From Candidatus Falkowbacteria bacterium RIFOXYA2_FULL_38_12 (GTDB taxonomy: Bacteria; Patescibacteriota; Patescibacteriia; XYB2-FULL-38-15): a stretch of 64,000 nt of DNA. Location of the stretch: assembly GCA_001778095.1 (NCBI GenBank), contig MFGA01000006.1, positions 6,169 through 70,168 of the forward strand. Direction: 5' to 3'. How positions within the stretch are numbered: the first letter of the stretch is position 1; each line of letters begins with the position of its first letter. Positions 2,934 to 57,968 of the stretch are shown piece after piece. The notes under the pieces were generated by a model that was not told where the DNA came from, did no database searches, and worked only from the letters and a program-made list of their open reading frames with translations. The position numbers and the translations under genes are program-made.

Positions 2934-5255
2934 CTACGGCAACGGTGTCGGAATTGGCGCCGGGTTTTCAACAATCTTGTTTTCCAGCATTTCCAGCTTA
3001 TCGTTTACTGTTTTGTTTTCAGGATCTTCTCTTAATATCTTTCTTAATTCTTTAATCGCCAGACTTTTTTCTCCTTGCTCTTCATAAATCGCCGCTAAAT
3101 ACCAATGAGCATTGGCAAATTTAGGTTCAAGTTCCAATGTTCTTTTTAGTTCAGCGATAGCTTTGTCTGTTTCTTTGTTTTGATGATAGAGCAATCCAAG
3201 CTGGAAGGAAATTCCCAAATCGCTTGGTAAGCTATAACGCATGGCTTCAAGTTTTGCGATGGCTTCTTTTGTTTTTCCTTGGCGACTAAAAACTAAAGAT
3301 AATTGAAAATGGGCCGGGACATAGTCGCTTTTTAGTTCAATGGCTTTATTGAATTGCTCTTCGGCTTTTGTCAGATTTTCTCTTACTTCTGATTGAACTT
3401 CATTTTTTGGTCTTTCTCCACTATTCCCTAAAATTAAATCAGCAATGGTAATATAGGTTTTGCCCAGCTCGTTATAAAAAACAGGATTATTCGGTTCCAG
3501 TTCTATCGCTTTTTTCCAGGAATCAATGGCCCAACCACCGGCTCCGTCAATAAAAGGCATTACGGTTTGATAGACAGAAGCGAGAACACTCCAGTTAGTT
3601 GAACTTTGCGGGCTAAGAGCTATCGCTTTTTTTGCCGAATTTAAACTTAGGGCTGTTAGATTCTCCACCTTTTTCGCTCTTTCTTCTGTTGCCTCAAGGC
3701 TTATCTCATTGCCAATTGAAAGAAGAAGACTCTGGGCAAAGTTTTTAAAGTAAATATCATTCCAGCGATTTTTGGCGACAGCAATATTAAAGTATTTGCT
3801 CACTTCTTCAACGGCGCCTCCATCATTACTGATTGCTAAAGCTTTTTTTGAAGCAAGGTCTGCCATGTAGCGTTGACCGACAAGATAAAAAACGGAGATG
3901 GAGAGAATAATGCTTAGTGACAAGAGAAAGGATAAAACCAAAGAGGTGCGAGGGTCTTGCCTTAATGATGTTTCCCAAAATTTATGAGAAATGGAAACAA
4001 CTATCAAGGCGGAGAGAAGCCAAAAAGAAAATTCCAGAGTTAGATTTGATGAATAGAGAAATTTAGCCACCAAAAGCAGGAACCATGACGAAGCGACAGC
4101 TAATTCCATTGGCCAAAAATCACCCTTTTCTTTGATTAAATCCGTTAATGATTTTCCTCCCAAAAAGAGAATCATAAATATCCACGATAAAAATCCGATA
4201 AGTCCGATAGTGGCCAGGGTAGTGATTACTTTTGAAGAAGACTGGTCAAATTTTATATTCCAAAGAGGTGTTTTATTGATATCCGCCGGTTTAAATTCAT
4301 TATAGTCAAAAACAAAAGTGCCGGGCCCGGAACCAAAGAAAGGGTTTTTTTCCAAAGTTTTTTGCGCTACTTGGGCGCTCAAGGAAAAAGACGGGGTGAT
4401 TTCCGCCGGTAAATTTAAATTAAGAGGCGTTCGAATGAAAAAGAAAATAACCCCGATTAAAAGGGCGATCGCCGGTAAAATTGACCAAGATAAATTTTTT
4501 ATTTCCGGGGCTTTTATGACTATAAAAGCAAGGGTGAAAGCTGTGCCGATAACAAGGCTCGCCCAAGCCATTCGCGAGTCAATGGCTAGCAGTAAAAAGA
4601 TATTCAAGAGAGATAATATTGTGAGAAAAATATTTTGTAATATTGTGGAAGGTTCTTTTAGTTGAAGGGTGGCGTGCGTTTTGAAAAGCATAGCGGAAGC
4701 CAAGACAAAACCCAAGGCTGAAAAAATTCCCAAAGCGGTTAAACTGCCAATAGTGTTTCCCGTCCAGTTTGGCGCGAGGCTCGCCGGCAGTAATCCCAAG
4801 ATTCCGAATAAAGAAAAGATGGAAGTTAAAAAAGAGCCGACAAGGAAAGCGTAGATTATTTTTTTTATTTCTTTCAATTCATCAATATTGTTGATGATAA
4901 TAAAATAAAAAATAATAAAGCAAAATAGAGTCAGAAAAGAATCTTTTTCTACTCCGGAGGAGCCGACAAAACCTCTGAATCTATCGCTTCCCAAGAGCGT
5001 CGAGAGAAAATAAACTCCCAAATAGATAATCGCCAATAAATTAAAAAAACTTTTTCGCCAAATAACTTTTTTGGAAGCGATCATTTTCCCCAGCCAAGCC
5101 AATCCGGCAATAAGGGTGAGAATGACTAAAAGATTTTGCTTATTAAACTCAAGCATTTCCAGAGTGAAGGGAAGAAAAAAGATCGGGAGAAAAATTAAGA
5201 GAGCATAAAGACAAGTTTTAATAATTTTTCCGCACACGTTGGCGAGAGTAGGCAT
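2934..5255 (-). CDS. Polytopic membrane protein with O-antigen-ligase-like (Wzy_C-type) core and C-terminal TPR repeats
   Basis: 773 aa. About 10 predicted TM helices in the N-terminal 450 aa. C-terminal ~300 aa has TPR-like repeats (ELEPNNPVFYNELGKTY..., AIELKSDYVPAHFQLSLVF...). Confidence 0.55.
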   Translation of the reverse strand: MPTLANVCGKIIKTCLYALLIFLPIFFLPFTLEMLEFNKQNLLVILTLIAGLAWLGKMIASKKVIWRKSFFNLLAIIYLGVYFLSTLLGSDRFRGFVGSSGVEKDSFLTLFCFIIFYFIIINNIDELKEIKKIIYAFLVGSFLTSIFSLFGILGLLPASLAPNWTGNTIGSLTALGIFSALGFVLASAMLFKTHATLQLKEPSTILQNIFLTILSLLNIFLLLAIDSRMAWASLVIGTAFTLAFIVIKAPEIKNLSWSILPAIALLIGVIFFFIRTPLNLNLPAEITPSFSLSAQVAQKTLEKNPFFGSGPGTFVFDYNEFKPADINKTPLWNIKFDQSSSKVITTLATIGLIGFLSWIFMILFLGGKSLTDLIKEKGDFWPMELAVASSWFLLLVAKFLYSSNLTLEFSFWLLSALIVVSISHKFWETSLRQDPRTSLVLSFLLSLSIILSISVFYLVGQRYMADLASKKALAISNDGGAVEEVSKYFNIAVAKNRWNDIYFKNFAQSLLLSIGNEISLEATEERAKKVENLTALSLNSAKKAIALSPQSSTNWSVLASVYQTVMPFIDGAGGWAIDSWKKAIELEPNNPVFYNELGKTYITIADLILGNSGERPKNEVQSEVRENLTKAEEQFNKAIELKSDYVPAHFQLSLVFSRQGKTKEAIAKLEAMRYSLPSDLGISFQLGLLYHQNKETDKAIAELKRTLELEPKFANAHWYLAAIYEEQGEKSLAIKELRKILREDPENKTVNDKLEMLENKIVENPAPIPTPLP

Positions 5256-5294
5256 AAAAATAAAATTATTTTAGATTTAGGGAGTATTTTACGA

Positions 5295-8500: not shown

Positions 8501-9774
8501 CCGGCCGCAGAAGCTGTAATGCTATAAATACCATAATTAATACCAACGGCATCTGTTGCCGTAAAATACCCCGCATACCCAGTCGCCGAAGTATTAGATC
8601 CATACACACCATAAGTTGCTCCGGTAGCGCCAGTCTTTTCAAAATATCCTGCTGCCGCGCCGGCGGTGGTAGAAGCCGCAGTTCCGTAAACACCATAATT
8701 AGTCCCTGTCGCTCCGCTCGCATTAGCATAAATTCCATACGCCGCCGTAGTTCCCGAAGAAGCAAAGTATCCGGCATAACCCGAGGCTTGAGCATTTTCA
8801 GAATTGATTGTTCGGGAATCAGTTGAAACAACATCTAACCCATAAGACGGGGTGTCATTATTAATACCGACTCTATTATCTCCGGCGCTAACATAGAGAA
8901 CACTGGTATCTACAATAAAGTTATCGTCAGTAATAAAGACATCACCTCCGGCAGGGTTTAAAGTAAAATCAACCGCTCCGGTTGTTGTGATTGAACTTGT
9001 TCCATAAGTTGTGGCGTTGCCAGCAATAAAAGAGGTGTCGGTGTAAATAGTTCCTTCAACGCCAAGAGTGCCCGCGATAAAAGCGTCATCTCCATCCAAA
9101 GAAAATGCATTGCTAAGAGTCTCGGCATTGGCGCCTAAATATAGATTGCTATTAATATAAGCTGTTAAAGTTAAAGTATCCGTGTTAGCGTCGCCCAAAG
9201 ACCATGATCCGGCAACTGTTTCGTCTTGTGCTAGTCGGCCAAAGGCGGATTCATCCAAATCGTCAAGCATATCCGCGTTAAAAGAATATAAAGACGCGCC
9301 AATCCTTTTTCTTGGTGTCATTTCGGCGTCAGCTCCTACCGTAACTCCCAAAAAGTAAGCAGAAGCGGAAAAATTAATACTAATCGCGCAATCGCCAGAT
9401 TCCCCCAGAAGAGTGGAAAAAACTCCGTTGGAAATAGTAACGGATTTTGCGGATGGATTAAATGCCGCGCCACAAGCGTCACTTTCTCTCGCGCTCCAAA
9501 CAACATTTCCTCCGGCGGCGGCATCATAAATGGTGAAAATAATATTGTATGCTCCATCGGCAACCGGAACGCCGGAAGAATCTTGTAGTTTTCCTTGATA
9601 ATTTAATTCTTTATTAACCGCGGCCTTGGCCCATTGAGGCGACCATTGTTTTATCGCCGAAAGAGCAATTATTCCCGCGCTTATTAAAGACAAAACGCCC
9701 AAAATCAAAACCAAGAGAGTGAGGCTCCCCTTATCGCGATTGGTGTATTTGGTTTTTCTGTTTGGCAAGGTCAT
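5569..9774 (-). CDS. Giant secreted/surface repeat protein with Gly/Tyr-rich tandem repeats and Pro/Ala/Glu-rich C-terminal tail
   Basis: Probable start at the second Met (MTLPNRK, 9774), followed by a signal-anchor helix. About 40 degenerate repeats of the YG(I/V)Y...AGYF type. C-terminal about 90 aa are PAPEAPA-like. The first 21 codons of the track ORF (5569..9837) come from repeat family G. Confidence 0.7.
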   Translation of the reverse strand: MTLPNRKTKYTNRDKGSLTLLVLILGVLSLISAGIIALSAIKQWSPQWAKAAVNKELNYQGKLQDSSGVPVADGAYNIIFTIYDAAAGGNVVWSARESDACGAAFNPSAKSVTISNGVFSTLLGESGDCAISINFSASAYFLGVTVGADAEMTPRKRIGASLYSFNADMLDDLDESAFGRLAQDETVAGSWSLGDANTDTLTLTAYINSNLYLGANAETLSNAFSLDGDDAFIAGTLGVEGTIYTDTSFIAGNATTYGTSSITTTGAVDFTLNPAGGDVFITDDNFIVDTSVLYVSAGDNRVGINNDTPSYGLDVVSTDSRTINSENAQASGYAGYFASSGTTAAYGIYANASGATGTNYGVYGTAASTTAGAAAGYFEKTGATGATYGVYGSNTSATGYAGYFTATDAVGINYGIYSITASAAGYAGYFSGGKGLYVNDDLWIGASSESITNAGFTLSGNDAYVADLLGVGGSVYAETSFIAGNATTYGANSITTSAANLDLHPFADVTIPNAHNLLIDGNTLYVNTTTERIGINTDPTNTYSLDVTSGASADTRTINALNTTAAGTAGYFTASGTGVTYGIYSVSSGTGANYGIYGSATGNGANFGVYGLTSSASGYSGYFTGGLGVYTDTAFLAGATTNYGTNSITTSGGDLDLHPAGNVTIHDGHNLTVDDDFIVDGTTLYVDGVTGNHIGIGRSPTDNYTLDILGAGTDTRTINAVNSNASGYGGYFVASGATGYAGYFEETDATNGVNYGIYAKTSSFNGTAGRFEAASTANEGTNYGINVSNASHVGVGGHFVASGSNATAGFFEATDTDNIDSISLAISARSYSDNGKAGYFVASGSGGTTYALHAVATGATGTNYAIYGTSASDTGYGAKFSATGSAGVAYGIYTEATGAAGTNYGIYSSVTSGTGTAGYFIAPGATATAGYFTATDAGNNDQLNYGIYSTTASSNGYAGYFTGGLGLYANRANIGRTPYNDPGDVNDDSPNELVIEGSLCVDDGTPTCLTAASAGTIYAEALAITEIDLAENYSSSENLEPGDVVSIDPNNNEKVIKSKIANDNTVMGIVSTKPGMTLGRSSLPDLYPVALAGRVPVKISNENGPIIRGDKLTSSSTPGVAMKADHAPYIGLALEPFNEPSGTIIAFVSIDWSSETDPGSGEVLTLEKLTGDLDANNFSILNIKKIAGINNRWSIDENGVLKINLTNNGFDKEMFGLTSTDVELTLSGSGKLQNGEKIIDLSEVDENFVKNISDKTPLKVMITLTEAGNGIYIAEKTQTSFKIKELNGGMSNSSFDWLVIARRSGYDDPVTPQAEPAPAPSVESPPAEASPAESPAPAESEPEAPAVEPAPTDGDEPPAEAPPVAPEAPAVEASEEVAPSPVVEAPAPAPEAPAESAPAAE

Positions 9775-9782
9775 AAAAAAGG

Positions 9783-9880
9783 ATTTTCCCCTCCCTTGAG
9801 GGGAGGGGTTAGGGGAGGGTGATATTTGTAGAAACATTTCACCCCCACCTAGCCTCCCCCATCAAGGGGGAGGAATGATA
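9783..9880. repeat. Repeat family G copy 1 (palindromic G/C-rich element, arms CACCCTCCCCTAACCCCTCCCATCAAGGGAGGGG)
   Basis: Two about-35-bp inverted arms separated by about 14 nt. A full copy lies at 32050-32140 and a single arm inside uvrB. Confidence 0.7.
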
Positions 9881-9881
9881 T

Positions 9882-12800
9882 TTATTGTCTTTCCAGCGCT
9901 ACATTAAATCTCACCGCTGCTCCTTTTTCTTTAGCGGTTAAATCTATATCATCGGTTTTTCGCGGTTTGAACTCCGGTTTACTGAAAGTCGCGTAATAAA
10001 CATTATTTCCAACCAAGAACGAATATCTTCCATTGGCATCGGTGACCTGTGTTTCCAATAATTTGTTATATTCTTTTTCAAAAATTCTGGCGACAGTTAA
10101 TCCAACAGGTTTTTTGGTATTTTTATCATAAACAACACCCCAGTTTTTCGGTTTTTTGGCTCGCGCAACTCTTTTCATGACAAAAAACAAGACAAAGTGT
10201 CCGGCCAAAAGTCCGAACATCCACGGCTTTGGCGAAATCATTACCGAAGCCATGGTAACGAGAAGTCCGGTCAAGGCGACAAGATCCTGCGCTCTTTTGC
10301 CAAAATATCCCAAAATAATCTTTTTATCAGTTACGGTTTTTTTACTTTCAATCGGATCAATGGGAATGTTTGGTGTGATGGTGGTATCTTTTTCGTTAAC
10401 AGTTAATTCTTCGCCATGATAAATATCTAAAAATTGGATATCTTCTTTTTTATCTTTCATGTAAACGGACGGAAAAGTGAAATTCGGTTTTGAAACTGCG
10501 ATATTGTATTTTCCCGGATTAACAAAAAAGGCAAATCTTCCTTCTCGGTCAGTCACTCTTGTTTGGACAAGTTTATTTGTTTCTTTGTTATAAAGACGAA
10601 CGATCGCCAGATCAACCGGCATTTTTGATAAAGAATTGTAGACAACGCCCCAACCTTTTCTTTTTTTAGGAAACAAGAGCAAAAGAGGTTGAGTAAAAAG
10701 GAATTGCAGAAAAGGAAGCAGGCTGGAAAAAGAAATAGCGGTTCCGTAGCTGATTATGGCAACGGCGGCAACGGTCGGCGCGGCGATATTTTCATTTGCT
10801 TTTTCAACTTCGGGATTATCTAAAACTTTTTCAGTGATTATTTCACCACCTTCACTTATTTTCTCGGCAATATTTTTGCTGACATTGGCAATATTCTCCG
10901 CAACGGGGGCTTCTTCGTTCCAGATAGGCTTTTCTTCGACAACAATAACCTCTTTTTTTAATTCAACAGTTTGGTTTATGTTATTTGTTGTTATCTCAAA
11001 TATTTCAGTTTGTTTTTTTTGATATCCGCTTTTTTCAACCACCAAGTAATATTTTCCTTTTGGTGTAATAAAACTATATTCGCCGTATTTGTTAGTATAT
11101 TGTGGATTCTCTTGGTTGAATTTTGCTCCGCTCCAGATAGTCTTGGGATTTTCCGTAAAAAGAGTGACTTTTGCTCCCTCTATTTTATTATCCCCTCTTC
11201 CTTCCCAGACAAAACCCGAATTGAGAAGAGAAAAACTTCCATCAATTTTGTCAAAAGTTCCATCTTCGTAGCTTACATATAAAGAAAACAATAGATTGGC
11301 CGGCTCATCAGGTATTTCAAAAGAAGTTTCATAAAAATTTTTACTATTCAGAGAAAGAAGATATGAAGAATTTTTAAAAATAATAGCAAGTTTTTCGGAA
11401 TTCTTGGTAAGTTTTTCTTTTTCTATTTTTAAGAGAACGGTTTTGTTGGTTAAGATTGATATTTGATTGTCTTGATTCGGTGAAAGTTGGATAGCGCCGT
11501 TGGCGGCAAGGAAACTAAAATCATTGATAGTCAGTTTTTCTTCTCCAAGAATAATTTTTTCTTCATCTATTTTTCCAAATATTTCTCCGGCTATTTCTTC
11601 AATTTCACCTTCTATGGCCGGTGGCAATTCCGGTTCTCCCGGACAACCGTCCCCCACGCAGGGCGGTTCTTCTGGAGGTTCTTCGGGTTCTTCTTCAGGC
11701 TCTTCATCGCACTCATCGCCAACGCACGGCGGTTCGACCACTACAACGATCGTCGCTTGAGTGAGCGCGCCGGCAGAATGATTTAGTGAAGCGTCATATG
11801 CGAAAGCGGTGTAATAAACCGGTCTGTTATAATCAGCTGCTGCAAATCTTATATCTGAAAAGTTTTCGGCTCTTCCGTCAAAAACCAAATCTCCTTCTTC
11901 CGGATTCGCCGGATGACTACCAAAGCTTCTTTTTATTAAGACTCTTGTAAAATCAGGATCAGCGGGGTTTGTCCAAGAAAGGTTGATTGTTCTTGCCGGA
12001 GTGGCGGTTGCGTTAAAATTACTGACATTGGCTGGCGGAATGAGGTCGTTTGTAGTAGTAAAAGTTTGATCTCCGGAAATAGCTGTATTTCCCCAAGCGT
12101 CAGTGGAAGTAATAATAAAATGGTAAGCTGTAGCAGTTTCCAGTCCTCCTAAAACAACAGTGTGGTTTAAAACAAAAGCGACTCCGGTGGCCATGCTTCC
12201 ATAAAGAATATTTTTTCCGTAATTTACAACACTGGTTGCCCCTTCATTAGTTTCCCAAGTTATTTCAGCCGAACTGTTTGTTATATTTATTGTTTGAATA
12301 TTGGAAATTACCGGCGGAATAATATCTTCTTCTGGTTCCGGTTCTTCTTCCGGCGGAATCACTGGAGGTGGTACAACCGGTCCCGGGGGAACTCCGCCTT
12401 CTTCAACTTCAGCGCTAACTGTCACCTGCTCATTGCTTACTATGTATATTGTTATTGTTTTTGAATCTCCAAAATTTCCGCCAATTTGGATAAAGTATGA
12501 ACCGGTCACGGCCGGATTTGTGATTCGTTCATTTCCGATCCCCTCTTCTGTCGTGTTTAGTCCTATTCTTATAATCACTGCGGAACTTCCGGCAATATAT
12601 GTTCCCGCATTGCTTGGCGCGGTCAGGGTAAAAACTCTGGCGGCAACCGATACTCCCCATTCTGTAGCCGTTGCTCCGCATCCGCCGGCTTCATTGTTAA
12701 TATCTTCTTGCGCTCCGTCATCAAGTAGATCAACGTCTCCACAATCAATGCCACCTAGATCGGCCGCAAAGGCACTGGGAAAAGTAATGGCAATGGTTTT

Positions 12801-20265: not shown

Positions 20266-20301
20266 TTTTATTTAAATTAGTTATAAATAATGTCCTTGGT
20301 G

Positions 20302-20400
20302 CACCACGTACAAGGCTTAGGTTAATCGGCTTGCTCGGCGGAGCAATAATCTTTGAAGTTTATTGTTTACTGAGTCATGGATGAACCTACGCCTTGTCCG
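20302..20400. repeat. tRNA-3'-end-associated element, family D copy 1 (CACCACG(T/G)ACAAGGC TIRs), abutting tRNA-Ala CCA end
   Basis: Imperfect 15-bp TIRs. Internal conserved block cggcggagcaataat...ttgtttactgagt. The outer TIR overlaps the CCACCA of tRNA-Ala(CGC). Confidence 0.65.
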
Positions 20401-20474
20401 TGGTGGACCTGGGGGGAATCGAACCCCCGCCCCCGCAATGCGAATGCGATGTAATACCACTTTACTACAGGCCC
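20401..20474 (-). tRNA. tRNA-Ala(CGC)
   Basis: Acceptor GGGCCTG/CAGGTCC with G3:U70, anticodon loop TTCGCAT, T-arm GGGGG-TTCGATT-CCCCC, encoded CCA. Confidence 0.8.
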
Positions 20475-20534
20475 ATATTGCCCCTGGTCCTCCTTCGCCA
20501 AAGCTATGGAGGGACGGGCAGGATTTTTCTTATT

Positions 20535-21876: not shown

Positions 21877-21974
21877 GTCATTCTGAGCGGAGCGAAGAAT
21901 CTCCCGCGCGTGCGGGCTAGAAAAGAATATATTGCGGGCATTCGCCCGAGATCCTTCACTGCGTTCAGGATGAC
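21877..21974. repeat. Hairpin repeat family A copy 4 (short variant GAGCGGAGCGAAGAATCTCCCGCG)
   Basis: Matches copy 6 (39410-39507) closely. Confidence 0.8.
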
Positions 21975-27451: not shown

Positions 27452-28249
27452 TTATTTTATAAAATTTTGGTAAATTCTATATTTCTTGATTAAATATAGC
27501 TTATTTTTTATATTCTTGTAAAGATAGCTTAGGATTTTTAATCCGTCTTGTTGAGAGTATCTCAGTTGATAACTTCTCCGACTGTTTAATGTCCTGTGTA
27601 AATTAATTTTGATGTTTTCGCTAATTAAGGCAGAAAGTTTGTCCAAAAAATTTTTGCATCCGGAAGTAAAAATAACTCTCAATGTTCCTCTGGATTTTTC
27701 GATGTGGACACATCCATCTCCGTCAAAGTATCCTCTCAAAAAACTTCCAAAATATTTTTTAGGAATAGCCGGCATTTCCAGATCAAGTGATTTGTTTGGA
27801 TGTAGCTTAAATTTACTTAAATCGTTAAAAATTTTATGGCTTCCAATTCTTAGTATAAAACGAGTCTTTCTATTATTGTTGAGGGCGGGGAGACGAACTA
27901 TTTTATGCTCTGAACCTAACGCGTTTTTAATTTTACTAATAATTTTATAATCGGTGTTATGAATTCTTAAATATAGACCTCGTAGGTAAGAAGCATCCTC
28001 TAGACTGCCATCAGCAAAAATAAATCCTAAAATATAAGCCATCTCGTACGACCATTTTTCAAAAAATTTTTCATTAACTTTGTATTTTACCCCCATATTT
28101 GCAGTATATATCCTTACGACTAGCTCGTCAAAACTATGTACCAAAAAAGGTTGCTTTTCGCAACCTTTTTTAAATCTCTTTTTTAGAATATTTCCATTTT
28201 TAGTGTTCTGACTCCAAATTGTTTGGCCTCGCCTCTTGTTTCCATCCAA
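27452..28249 (-). CDS. Free-standing double-motif LAGLIDADG homing endonuclease
   Basis: Motifs ILGFIFADGS and LRGYFDGDGCV about 100 aa apart. Alternative start at Met52 (28096) would remove the overlap with the upstream 3D-domain gene. Confidence 0.75.
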   Translation of the reverse strand: MDGNKRRGQTIWSQNTKNGNILKKRFKKGCEKQPFLVHSFDELVVRIYTANMGVKYKVNEKFFEKWSYEMAYILGFIFADGSLEDASYLRGLYLRIHNTDYKIISKIKNALGSEHKIVRLPALNNNRKTRFILRIGSHKIFNDLSKFKLHPNKSLDLEMPAIPKKYFGSFLRGYFDGDGCVHIEKSRGTLRVIFTSGCKNFLDKLSALISENIKINLHRTLNSRRSYQLRYSQQDGLKILSYLYKNIKNKLYLIKKYRIYQNFIK

Positions 28250-28668: not shown

Positions 28669-28776
28669 ATTGTTTTTTCTTTGTTCTCCTCCTTTGTTTT
28701 TACTTTAATTTAAAACAAAATCCCTTATATTCGGGATTATTCAATATACCATATTTTGGGGTTTTTGTCAACCCTA

Positions 28777-28899
28777 CCCAAAGTTTAGGTTGATCAACTT
28801 TTTCGGCTCGCCTCGCTAAAGCTATGGCGAAGCGGGCGGAGCAATAACCTAAAAAGATGATTTGTTTACCGAGTAATTGACGAACCTGTACTTTGGGCG
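28777..28899. repeat. Family D copy 3, carrying an inserted CGCTAAAGCTAT mini-hairpin
   Basis: Same backbone as 20302-20400 and 56187-56290, with an extra tcgcctcgctaaagctatggcgaagcggg inserted. No tRNA adjacent. Confidence 0.65.
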
Positions 28900-29040
28900 G
28901 GGTCAATGGGCTGTATTTGGGGCGAGTGGTGCATACTTAACTTCAATCTTGCAAATGTCAAACTCCATTGACAAAGATATATATATGCCTTAATGGACTT
29001 ATCTCCGACTTTTGGATGTCGGAGGAAAGGAGGGCAGAAA

Positions 29041-32049: not shown

Positions 32050-32140
32050 TTATTCCTCCCCCTTGATGGGGGAGGCTAGGAGGGGGTGGTAAATAAAATC
32101 ACCCTCCCCTAACCCCTCCCATCAAGGGAGGGGAAAAACT
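32050..32140. repeat. Repeat family G copy 2 (full palindromic element)
   Basis: Inverted arms cctcccccttgatgggggaggctaggagggggtg / caccctcccctaacccctcccatcaagggagggg. Confidence 0.75.
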
Positions 32141-33240: not shown

Positions 33241-33425
33241 TGTCATTGCGAGCCCCGACTTTTTAGTCGGGGCGTGGCAATTCTCCCCCAGCTGTCATCC
33301 CCGCGCAGGCGGGGATCCACTCTTTGTAAAAAGTAGATTCCCGCCTGCGCGGGAATGACAATAAAGATAAGGGTAACGAAAAGCAGGGGATTGCTTCGCT
33401 ACACTTCGTTTCGCTCGCAATGACA
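33241..33425. repeat. Repeat family B copy 2 with a nested hairpin element (33293-33360)
   Basis: Same perfect 12-bp TIRs as 14211-14352. Interior carries TGTCATCCCCGCGCAGGCGGGGA...TCCCGCCTGCGCGGGAATGACA. The right TIR overlaps the first ATG of the uvrB ORF. Confidence 0.8.
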
Positions 33426-39409: not shown

Positions 39410-39507
39410 GTCATTATGAGCGGAGCGAAGAATCTCCCGCGCATGCGGGCTAGAAAAGAATATATTGCGGGCATTCGCCCGAGATCCTTCACTTCGCTCA
39501 GGATGAC
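39410..39507. repeat. Hairpin repeat family A copy 6
   Basis: Short variant like copy 4. Confidence 0.8.
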
Positions 39508-48044: not shown

Positions 48045-48101
48045 AATGTTAATAGGTTTTTAAGTTAATAATTCGTTTTCCTTCTTTATCTACCCCAATT
48101 C

Positions 48102-48180
48102 GTCATCCCGAGCTTGTCGAGGGATCTCTCGCCGTGGTTAAAGAATTACAATGGGATTTCTCGACAAGCTCGAAATGACA
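48102..48180. repeat. Repeat family C copy 2 (without the 33-nt mini-hairpin insertion)
   Basis: gtcatcccgagcttgtcga...tcgacaagctcgaaatgaca. Confidence 0.8.
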
Positions 48181-48273
48181 GTATGGGCGTCCGATTCCAG
48201 ATTTTTAATTTCCCAGCATACCATTCTCTATCATACTTGTAAAGCCTCTTTATAGATAGTATTATAAATAAAT

Positions 48274-53924: not shown

Positions 53925-54099
53925 TAGAGCATATCCCCCAGAATGGGGAATTTTCTTTGACAACTTAAAGTGATAGAAATACCTCAATTCTTTAAATAAG
54001 AATAAATATAGTTATATATTGAGAGCTTGAACTCCGGTCTTCGGACCGGGTTGATTTTGTTCTTCTGAACAAAATTTAAGAGATTCAACACTTTCATTT

Positions 54100-55875
<1,776 letters not shown>

Positions 55876-56109: not shown

Positions 56110-56186
56110 GGGCGCGTAGCTCAGTCGGTTAGAGCGCGTCACTGATAATGACGAGGTCGGAGGTTCGATTCCTCCCGCGCCCACCA
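56110..56186 (+). tRNA. tRNA-Ile(GAT)
   Basis: GGGCGCG acceptor, anticodon loop CTGATAA, T-arm GGAGG-TTCGATT-CCTCC, encoded CCA. Confidence 0.9.
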
Positions 56187-56290
56187 GTACAAGGCTTAGG
56201 TTAATTCCATAACTCGGCGGAGCAATAATCACTAAAGATAATTGTTTACTGAGTGCTTTAATGAACCTATGCCTCGTGCGTGGCCCACCA
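56187..56290. repeat. Family D copy 2 immediately after tRNA-Ile CCA, ending in a duplicated GCCCACCA
   Basis: gtacaaggcttaggttaat...cggcggagcaataatc...ttgtttactgagt...cgtggcccacca. GCCCACCA is present at both ends. Confidence 0.7.
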
Positions 56291-57139: not shown

Positions 57140-57214
57140 GCAGGTGTCGTATAATGGCTATTATGTCACCCTTCCAAGGTGAAGACGCCGGTTCGATTCC
57201 GGTCACCTGCTCCA
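57140..57214 (+). tRNA. tRNA-Gly(TCC)
   Basis: Acceptor GCAGGTG/CACCTGC, anticodon loop CTTCCAA, T-arm GCCGG-TTCGATT-CCGGT, U73, encoded CCA. Confidence 0.75.
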
Positions 57215-57230
57215 GAATAAAAATAAAAAC

Positions 57231-57968
57231 ATGGCCTCATTTTTTTGGATAATCGGTAGCACAATTGTGATCAGCGCAATTTCCTTAGTCGGGATATTTT
57301 TTTTGTCTTTAAATGCTAAGCATTTGGAAAAATACCTTTTGTCTTTTGTCGCCTTGGCCTCCGGCGCTCTTTTGGGGGGAGCTTTTTTACATCTCCTGCC
57401 CGAGGCGGTGGAAAAACTGAACGCCGATTCGGTTTTTTTGTGGACATTGATTTCTCTTTTAGCTTTTTTTGTGATAGAAAAAATATTTCAATGGAGGCAT
57501 TGCCATAAAGAACATTGCGAGATACACACTTTTGGCTATATGACTCTTTTTGGCGATGGCGTTCATAATTTTATAGATGGCCTGATTATTGCTGCGGCTT
57601 TTGTTGAAAGCACAAGCTTGGGGTTGGTTGTTAGTCTTGGTGTTATTCTCCACGAGATTCCTCAAGAGATTGGTGATTTTTCCACCTTACTTTTGGCGGG
57701 GTTTAATAAGAAGAAAGCTCTCTTGATGAATTTTTTGGTCGCGCTTACCGCTGTTGGCGGAGGCATCGTGGGTTTTTTTCTAGCCTCATATTCCGATCAA
57801 TTCATAAATATTTTAATCCCGTTCGCGGCGGGAGGATTTATCTATATTGCCGCTTCCGACTTGATTCCCGAGATAAGGAAAGAAACAAAAACCAAAGAAT
57901 CAATAAGAACCTTAGCCTTTTTTTTATTGGGGATTGTTCTCATGTATTTAATGAAATTTGTAGAATAA
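57231..57968 (+). CDS. zupT: ZIP-family divalent metal transporter
   Basis: 245 aa. HEIPQEIGDF signature. About 8 TM helices. Confidence 0.85.
   Translation: MASFFWIIGSTIVISAISLVGIFFLSLNAKHLEKYLLSFVALASGALLGGAFLHLLPEAVEKLNADSVFLWTLISLLAFFVIEKIFQWRHCHKEHCEIHTFGYMTLFGDGVHNFIDGLIIAAAFVESTSLGLVVSLGVILHEIPQEIGDFSTLLLAGFNKKKALLMNFLVALTAVGGGIVGFFLASYSDQFINILIPFAAGGFIYIAASDLIPEIRKETKTKESIRTLAFFLLGIVLMYLMKFVE

Follow-up and report, generated by a model that had tools for sequence, protein, structure and literature searches.

Bacterial MITEs such as Correia (Neisseria), RUP (pneumococcal) and ERIC/IRU (enterobacterial) are ~100-150 bp in length and are transcribed as hairpins when found inside operons. 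To our knowledge, none of them favors the bond between the tRNA discriminator and the CCA, or rebuilds the CCA with the tip of a terminal inverted repeat (TIR). The 3' ends of tRNA and tmRNA genes are the landing zone of integrating islands and prophages, where the incoming DNA restores the 3' part of the gene and the old fragment is found at the far junction. Preference for a short recurring motif is a feature of IS1397 and ISKpn1 (into REP/BIME) as well as of IS30- and IS3-type elements, the latter two favoring targets that resemble their own ends. Members of the IS1380 family have 5'-CC ends and give rise to 4-5 bp duplications, and IS1380 itself reportedly duplicates TCGA. In compact genomes, tRNA genes serve as safe havens for Ty3, for the Dictyostelium elements TRE and DGLT-A, and for Tn7-like/CAST elements.

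Here, we describe a family of small hairpin elements, referred to as family D, in a 64-kb stretch of DNA (the window; GC content 39%) from a Candidatus Falkowbacteria MAG of the Rifle aquifer (strains RIFOXYA2_FULL_38_12 / RIFOXYB2_FULL_38_15, contig MFGQ01000002.1). Like Correia, RUP and ERIC/IRU, it is a non-coding imperfect palindrome formed by TIRs, flanked by a short duplication and found as dispersed intergenic copies that are polymorphic between relatives. In contrast to Correia and RUP, which duplicate TA, the duplications of family D are 3-4 bp and of T(S)(S)A type. The element shares its landing zone, the restored 3' part and the displaced old fragment with the integrase islands, but the latter rely on a recombinase acting at a constant att core (7 to >40 bp), extend over kilobases and enter their sites in a single orientation, whereas family D spans 100 bp, is bounded by TIRs, has variable 3-4 bp duplications, and is found in both orientations and at many non-tRNA sites. 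As with IS1397/ISKpn1, IS30 and IS3, a short motif recurs at the targets (NNNA/CCA, which resembles the element's own A/CCACG); here the target is the tRNA acceptor end, and the likeness is one of behavior only. The CC ends, 4-bp duplications and T-S-S-A-like target are reminiscent of the IS1380 family, but the sequences analyzed contained neither an IS1380-type transposase nor a matching TIR. Ty3, TRE/DGLT-A and Tn7-like/CAST are autonomous, large and insert at a distance by protein or guide-RNA tethering, in contrast to family D, which is found at the bond between N73 and N74.

The structural features of a MITE, i.e., small size, lack of coding sequence, TIRs, variable duplications, dispersed copies and insertion polymorphism, were all found, and family D is very probably a MITE of Candidatus Falkowbacteria-type CPR bacteria. 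The family, its CPR host and the recurrent landing between discriminator and CCA with a TIR tip that restores the CCA are new. We know of no parent IS for family D in its CPR host, and the literature that was searched for tRNA-end-targeting MITEs or MITEs in CPR did not yield a precedent.

Structure of the Element

The window harbors three hairpin copies of ~100 nt each, with a mutual identity of 70-83% and the core of all three on the + strand. The original prediction of three related copies, two of which adjoin tRNA 3' ends with a CCACCA-like repeat, was confirmed in the sequence; the repeated motifs are GCCCACCA...GCCCACCA at tRNA-Ile and TCCACCA...TGCACCA (tRNA strand) at tRNA-Ala. The third copy is, as predicted, not linked to a tRNA and lies in a divergent intergenic region. 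The extents of the copies were set from matches to a covariance model (CM), R1, which was built from 11 copies, together with an analysis of the flanks. On this basis the copies begin 3 nt earlier than first proposed, the CCA being the tip of the TIR. The features in the window are as follows.

20304..20403, + strand: MITE copy 1; CM R1 106.6 bits; hairpin -53.5 kcal/mol, z -6.6; not at the orthologous site of locus L024
20304-20326 and 20381-20403: left (CCACGTACAAGGCTTAGGTTAAT) and right TIRs of copy 1; core strand opposite to the adjoining tRNA-Ala
20404..20407, - strand: proximal target-site duplication TCCA, corresponding to tRNA-Ala(cgc) nt 70-73 (aggTCCAccaaagac at the unoccupied L024 site)
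20300..20303, - strand: distal duplication at the Ala site, now TGCA, one C>G off TCCA
20297..20299, - strand: displaced original CCA of tRNA-Ala, beyond the far side of the element (window ...GTGG/TGCA/CCAaggacatt vs empty TCCA/CCAaagacaat in L024)
20401..20474, - strand: tRNA-Ala(cgc) as called by ARAGORN (Rfam tRNA at 20404-20474)
20401-20403: terminal CCA called for tRNA-Ala, which is the tip of the right TIR and overlaps the CM match 20304-20403
56184..56283, + strand: MITE copy 2; CM R1 100.6 bits; same orientation as tRNA-Ile; one C missing in the left TIR (CCA-GTAC); absent in L034-L041
56180..56183, + strand: proximal duplication CCCA, nt 70-73 of tRNA-Ile
56284..56287, + strand: distal duplication CCCA at the Ile site
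56288..56290, + strand: displaced original CCA of tRNA-Ile (empty allele gcgCCCACCAggcataaaggaaaaatATG vs window ...GTGG CCCA CCA aaggaaaaatATG)
56110..56186, + strand: tRNA-Ile(gat) as called by ARAGORN, with its CCA (56184-56186) supplied by the left TIR tip
28772..28902, + strand: MITE copy 3; CM R1 70.9 bits; divergent intergenic region; CCCCG-type ends CCCTACCC...GGGCGGGG
28805-28834: nested 30-nt hairpin insert in copy 3, loop AAAGCTATGG
28768..28771 and 28903..28906, + strand: left and right target-site duplications TCAA of copy 3

Members of family D are 100-103 bp in length, or 131 bp where a nested insert is present, and they contain no ORFs and thus no coding capacity. A size of ~100 nt, which was at first considered unusual, is typical of bacterial MITEs such as Correia, RUP and ERIC. 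The TIRs are ~23 bp and imperfect (CCACGTACAAGGYTTAGGTTRAT). An alignment of 17 copies with their flanks places the termini at 5'-CCACG...CGTGG-3'; window copy 3 belongs to a subfamily with CCCCG...CGGGG instead. The string that had been quoted as the TIR, CACCACG(T/G)ACAAGGC, includes 2 nt of the duplication. Within the window, the blocks TTAGGTTRAT, GGCGGAGCAATAA, TTGTTTACYGAGT and GAACCT each occur exactly three times, only on the + strand, and are common to the three copies, which form long imperfect hairpins (z = -5.4 to -6.6 on the + strand relative to shuffled controls).

Target-Site Duplications

The short direct repeats outside the termini are target-site duplications. Among the 17 copies, the 4-bp repeats are CCCA (2 copies), TCCA (3), TCTA (2), TTGA (2), TCAA (1) and TTCA (1), and the 3-bp repeats are TGA (2) and TGG (1); two further copies are flanked by TGCA/TGGA that match at three of four positions, and the copy at L023 displays no clear duplication. 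Perfect 4-nt repeats are thus found at a minimum of 11 of the 17 copies, where chance would yield them at 0.5-0.65% of sites (P ~3e-22). Most duplications begin with T and end with A, the commonest being TCCA/TGGA or CCCA. Because the sequence of the repeats varies while their length is fixed, they carry the signature of a staggered-cut transposase rather than of a recombinase core. The original proposal of a target-site duplication generated by a small non-autonomous element is borne out by these repeats and by the empty sites described below.

The distal duplication displays the same C>G change (TGCA) at both antisense insertions, i.e., at tRNA-Ala and at the tmRNA of L017, which yields the perfect palindrome TGGTG/CACCA. 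Two other readings of the junctions were weighed and rejected, namely an excision footprint and a longer duplication of 7-8 bp (CCCACCA). The latter would need the left CCA to have been lost at every tRNA site, while copies outside tRNA genes keep CCACG at both ends.

Empty Sites and Insertion Polymorphism

Empty sites, which the original prediction had proposed to look for at orthologous tRNA loci, were found for both tRNA genes of the window. The Ala site is empty in L024, a locus of a related MAG in which RmuC belongs to the same 90%-identity cluster and the same tRNA-Arg/tRNA-Ala neighborhood is present without a match to the model. Here, L024 reads ...ccccccaggTCCAccaaagacaatc, and the window reads ...ccccccaggTCCA followed by the element (CCACGGAC...GTACGTGG) and TGCAccaaggacatta; in short form, aggTCCAccaaagac corresponds to aggTCCA[100 nt]TGCAccaaggac. 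The Ile site is empty in eight contigs (L034-L041), in which a near-identical 78-aa ORF is found downstream, 16 nt after tRNA-Ile; these contigs read gcgCCCACCAggcataaagg...ATG, as compared to gcgCCCA[100 nt]CCCACCAaagg...ATG in the window. The same site is filled in the window and in L025 (...gcgCCCA[CCAGTAC...GCGTGG]CCCACCAaaggaaaaatATG). From the filled site the GGCATA hexamer of the empty alleles is missing, as is one TIR base, i.e., the Ile insertion is not perfectly clean.

Comparison of the filled and empty alleles indicates that both tRNA genes encoded CCA prior to insertion and that the element entered between A73 and C74, whereby nt 70-73 were duplicated and the original CCA came to lie beyond the far TIR. 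The element evidently does not start right after an encoded tRNA CCA, as had been assumed. The CCA that is contiguous with the tRNA is the first three bases of the TIR and the original CCA is displaced, which accounts in full for the "duplicated CCACCA"; as the TIR itself begins with CCA, the reading of the gene as ...N73-CCA is retained. The previously proposed repetition of the terminal octamer holds to the extent that the motif is present, but the true duplication comprises only the 4 bp of nt 70-73, the rest being the displaced CCA and one coincidental base.

A further polymorphism is seen at tmRNA genes. In alignment A3 the tmRNA genes of L015 and L017, two related organisms, are nearly identical, and the element is found at different ends of the gene: in L015 it is located ~45 nt upstream of the tmRNA and is lacking at the 3' end, while the reverse is found in L017. 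Loci L027-L030 were considered as candidates for an empty Ile site and rejected on account of unrelated sequence downstream of A73 and an extra 331-aa ORF.

The tRNA-Ile 3' flank is a rearrangement hot spot, as it occurs in four states in close relatives, all of which diverge exactly after A73: empty with CCA (L034), MITE (window), a 331-aa orphan ORF without CCA (L027/L030) and a 115-nt pseudo-half insert (L032). In L032 (7375-7600), the 3' half of tRNA-Ile is identical to that of the window, and the ~115 nt behind the gene terminate in a pseudo 3' half of tRNA-Ile, which keeps the acceptor end and the anticodon-loop-to-variable region but has a hairpin (CCCCGCCAAGGCGGGAC) in place of the T arm. 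At this tRNA end, the insert differs in kind from the MITE.

Occurrence of the Family

The 17 copies consist of the three in the window and 14 from related metagenome or genome contigs, and represent a small sample of ~15 independent insertions from a narrow clade. A pattern scan of metagenomes returned 13 loci on groundwater contigs, of which ~8 were new distinct copies, and the covariance model identified further, more divergent copies within metagenome loci. At least six copies reside on one 108-kb metagenome contig (L012, L017). A TIR-based genome scan identified only two copies, which are identical and belong to one GTDB MAG (L032, L033). No matches were obtained in an exact scan of 185,579 reference genomes with the core pattern or in scans of viral contigs with the core and TIR patterns. 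A filter-free model search of the window returned no further family members, only unrelated GC-rich hairpin families. Two loci, L014 and L022, matched the search pattern without containing the element and were discarded as chance matches.

Some copies reside within another repeat. In L017, a 243-nt direct repeat (9619-9861 and 11040-11282, 95% identical) flanks an HtrA-like protease gene, and in each of its two units a MITE copy lies within a palindromic repeat that is AT-rich and of AAATCC type. Repeats of this AT-rich family also host the copies of L013 and L021, at the same TCTA site.

Other GC-rich intergenic hairpin families in the window are found at 21878-21973 and 39411-39506, at 9787-9874 and 32053-32135, at 33294-33359 and at 48095-48186. 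These sequences (e.g., TCATTCTGAGCGGAGCGAAGAATCTC... and TCCCCTCCCTTGA...) were weak structural matches in the filter-free search and share no sequence relationship with family D.

Insertion at tRNA 3' Ends

Five of the ~15 insertions are found at the N73/N74 bond, i.e., at tRNA-Ala and tRNA-Ile (window), tRNA-Leu(caa) (L018), tRNA-Ser(tga) (L012) and tmRNA (L017). Counting only the insertions that were found by pattern or model, regardless of tRNAs, three of 13 are at this bond (P ~3e-11 under random insertion). At Ile, Leu and Ser the core shares the strand of the gene, whereas at Ala and tmRNA it lies on the opposite one. The occurrence of both orientations at tRNA-type genes implies that the association is made at the level of DNA and not via co-transcription. 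About two thirds of the insertions are located away from tRNA ends; one of the copies, in L021, lies 36 nt downstream of tRNA-Glu. The original prediction of an element specialized for tRNA CCA ends therefore stands only in part, as these ends are used recurrently, at five sites, but not exclusively. Its alternative, that only two tRNAs are affected without insertion polymorphism, is at odds with the empty sites described above and with the insertions at tRNA-Leu, tRNA-Ser and tmRNA in other genomes.

CCA(C), which resembles the element junction A/CCACG, comes directly after the duplicated 4-mer at four of the five tRNA-type sites and, on the other strand, at L012-980. The motif YCCACCA occurs 12 times in the window, three times at element sites; seven of the remaining nine are inside ORFs. 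Only one of six element-free tRNA genes in the window has an encoded CCA. Because CCA is rarely encoded, it must normally be added after transcription, as in standard tRNA maturation, and the sequence past N73 should therefore be dispensable. At the tRNA-Ser of L012 the target lacks CCA and the element tip is CCC, which shows that the element can do without rebuilding the CCA. In our reading, the bias would be adequately accounted for by a sequence preference together with tolerance of insertions past N73 where genes are densely packed.

We consider it less likely that family D, or its transposase, is a dedicated tRNA-end homing DNA transposon. Such an element would recognize N73/CCA of CCA-encoding tRNA and tmRNA genes, perhaps as a mimic of its own A/CCACG, its TIR tip would rebuild the CCA, and tRNA ends would be its primary safe haven in streamlined CPR genomes.

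Alternative Explanations for the Hairpin

The stability of the hairpin raises the question of whether family D is a structured noncoding RNA or a cis-acting tRNA 3' trailer that is conserved for its fold and co-transcribed with tRNAs, e.g., for processing, stability or as an sRNA hairpin. Compensatory substitutions are found in nine of 35 predicted pairs of the arms. Conservation is higher in the internal core than in the outer TIR stem, which is unusual in MITEs, although this difference is partly forced by the search pattern used to collect the copies; TTGTTTACT is also kept in copies found by the covariance model alone. Fixed G-U pairs favor one strand, and the variable pairs include 17 G-U as compared to 7 A-C, but this excess falls short of significance and the copies do not constitute independent samples. 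Covariation of the arms separates neither reading because paired TIRs are expected to co-vary like an RNA stem. Co-oriented copies (Ile, Leu, Ser) are offset by antisense ones (Ala, tmRNA), the majority of copies are away from tRNAs, and the target duplications and empty sites point to mobility at the level of DNA. A search of the window against Rfam at the gathering threshold returned tRNAs and one 16S rRNA only, with no family for the element; permissive thresholds added only chance, sub-threshold miRNA-hairpin look-alikes. Promoter and terminator scans of the copies did not reveal anything meaningful. We therefore regard an RNA function as the origin of the family as very unlikely.

Even less probable is a miniature site-specific integrative element, i.e., a remnant of an integrase island with an att core at the tRNA 3' end that carries a replacement 3' end. 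The 3' ends of tRNA and tmRNA genes are classic integrase targets and the 3'-terminal motif is duplicated on both flanks, but the junction repeats vary between sites (TTGA, TCTA, TGA, TTCA, TCCA, CCCA), which fits duplication by a staggered cut rather than a constant crossover core. In addition, these repeats are just 3-4 bp, the ends are terminal inverted repeats, either orientation is found at tRNAs, and there is no integrase nearby, the neighbors being housekeeping genes.

Movement by an HUH/Y1 enzyme as a single-strand hairpin, in the manner of IS200/IS605 (PATE) or REP/RAYT elements that insert 3' of a fixed short target, is scarcely credible: the element is wholly a hairpin, one strand folds better and one strand is common to all three window copies, but variable duplications are present at both ends where IS200/IS605 elements use a single fixed target tetra- or pentanucleotide and are not known to duplicate it, the hairpin is terminal and full-length rather than subterminal, and REPs are 20-40 nt.

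Proposed Mobilizing Enzyme and Mechanism

An integrase or transposase associated with ends that match the TIRs had been suggested as a check, but neither an autonomous element nor a transposase with matching TIRs turned up in the window, the 47 loci, the viral contigs or the 185,579 reference genomes. Scans of the window and the 47 loci for solo or widely spaced TIRs returned only the MITE copies. A Pfam scan of 24 window proteins revealed no transposase or integrase domain, and a sequence search with a 435-aa orphan returned no relative in the PDB.

We propose that family D is mobilized by a trans-acting DDE-type transposase, encoded elsewhere, which would cut the target with a 4-nt stagger and prefer T(S)(S)A targets, chiefly TCCA/TGGA and CCCA. 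Favored sites would be those where the duplicated 4-mer is followed by CCA, like the element's own end, a motif that the 3' ends of tRNA and tmRNA genes supply. Where genes are densely packed and CCA is not encoded in most tRNA genes, the sequence past N73 is presumably trimmed and the CCA added enzymatically, such that an insertion after N73 would be harmless and hence persist.

Other Inserts and Neighboring Genes

Additional rearrangements were observed at tRNA genes of the window and its relatives. In L024 (~140-290, - strand; GCA_035290145.1 DATDUX010000033.1), the tRNA-Ala(cgc) that is orthologous to window 20401-20474 is split at anticodon-loop nt 37/38 by a 108-nt insert, which consists of a complete second tRNA-Ala(cgc) between inverted-repeat arms of 17-19 nt; the outer halves are identical to the window tRNA. 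The nested tRNA of this CPR bacterium thus sits at the canonical intron position of another tRNA.

The spacer between tRNA-Arg and tRNA-Ala in the window (20475-20533) holds a small hairpin with the loop AAAGCTATGG, a 55-nt insertion relative to the L024 spacer AATAT. Its last 12 nt repeat the 3' end of tRNA-Arg together with spacer sequence (CCAGGGGCAATA vs CCAGGGGCAAATA). The same hairpin type is nested in MITE copy 3 (28805-28834) and represents a second mini-element with a duplicated tRNA 3' end.

In L034, a gene for a 491-aa large serine recombinase (3743-5281), followed by HTH and SwaI-like genes, is found directly after tRNA-Gly, and this region is probably an integrated element at tRNA-Gly. 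Where L034-type relatives carry the serine recombinase, the window has a ZIP transporter gene (57140-57968).

A free-standing LAGLIDADG_3 homing-endonuclease-like gene is located at 27452-28249 (- strand) of the window, flanked on one side by tRNA-Cys and a 5'-3' exonuclease gene, and on the other by a 161-aa ORF that adjoins MITE copy 3. The 16S rRNA gene at 54098-55874 is 1777 nt long as compared to a model of 1533 positions, i.e., it contains ~240 nt of insertions.

Implications

From the above discussion, it becomes clear that the odd CCACCA duplication at these tRNA genes is an ordinary transposition footprint. It also constitutes a warning for annotation, because gene finders read the transposon tip as an "encoded CCA", as ARAGORN did at four loci. 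The data document a MITE family that is, or recently was, active in CPR, bacteria in which mobile DNA is poorly described.

If true targeting were proven, family D would be a rare element of cut-and-paste type that homes to the tRNA acceptor end, and would offer a simple natural case of a transposon that mends its target gene with its own terminus. Together with the other inserts at tRNA genes, homing, if true, would hint at tRNA genes being a general landing pad for miniature mobile elements in CPR bacteria.
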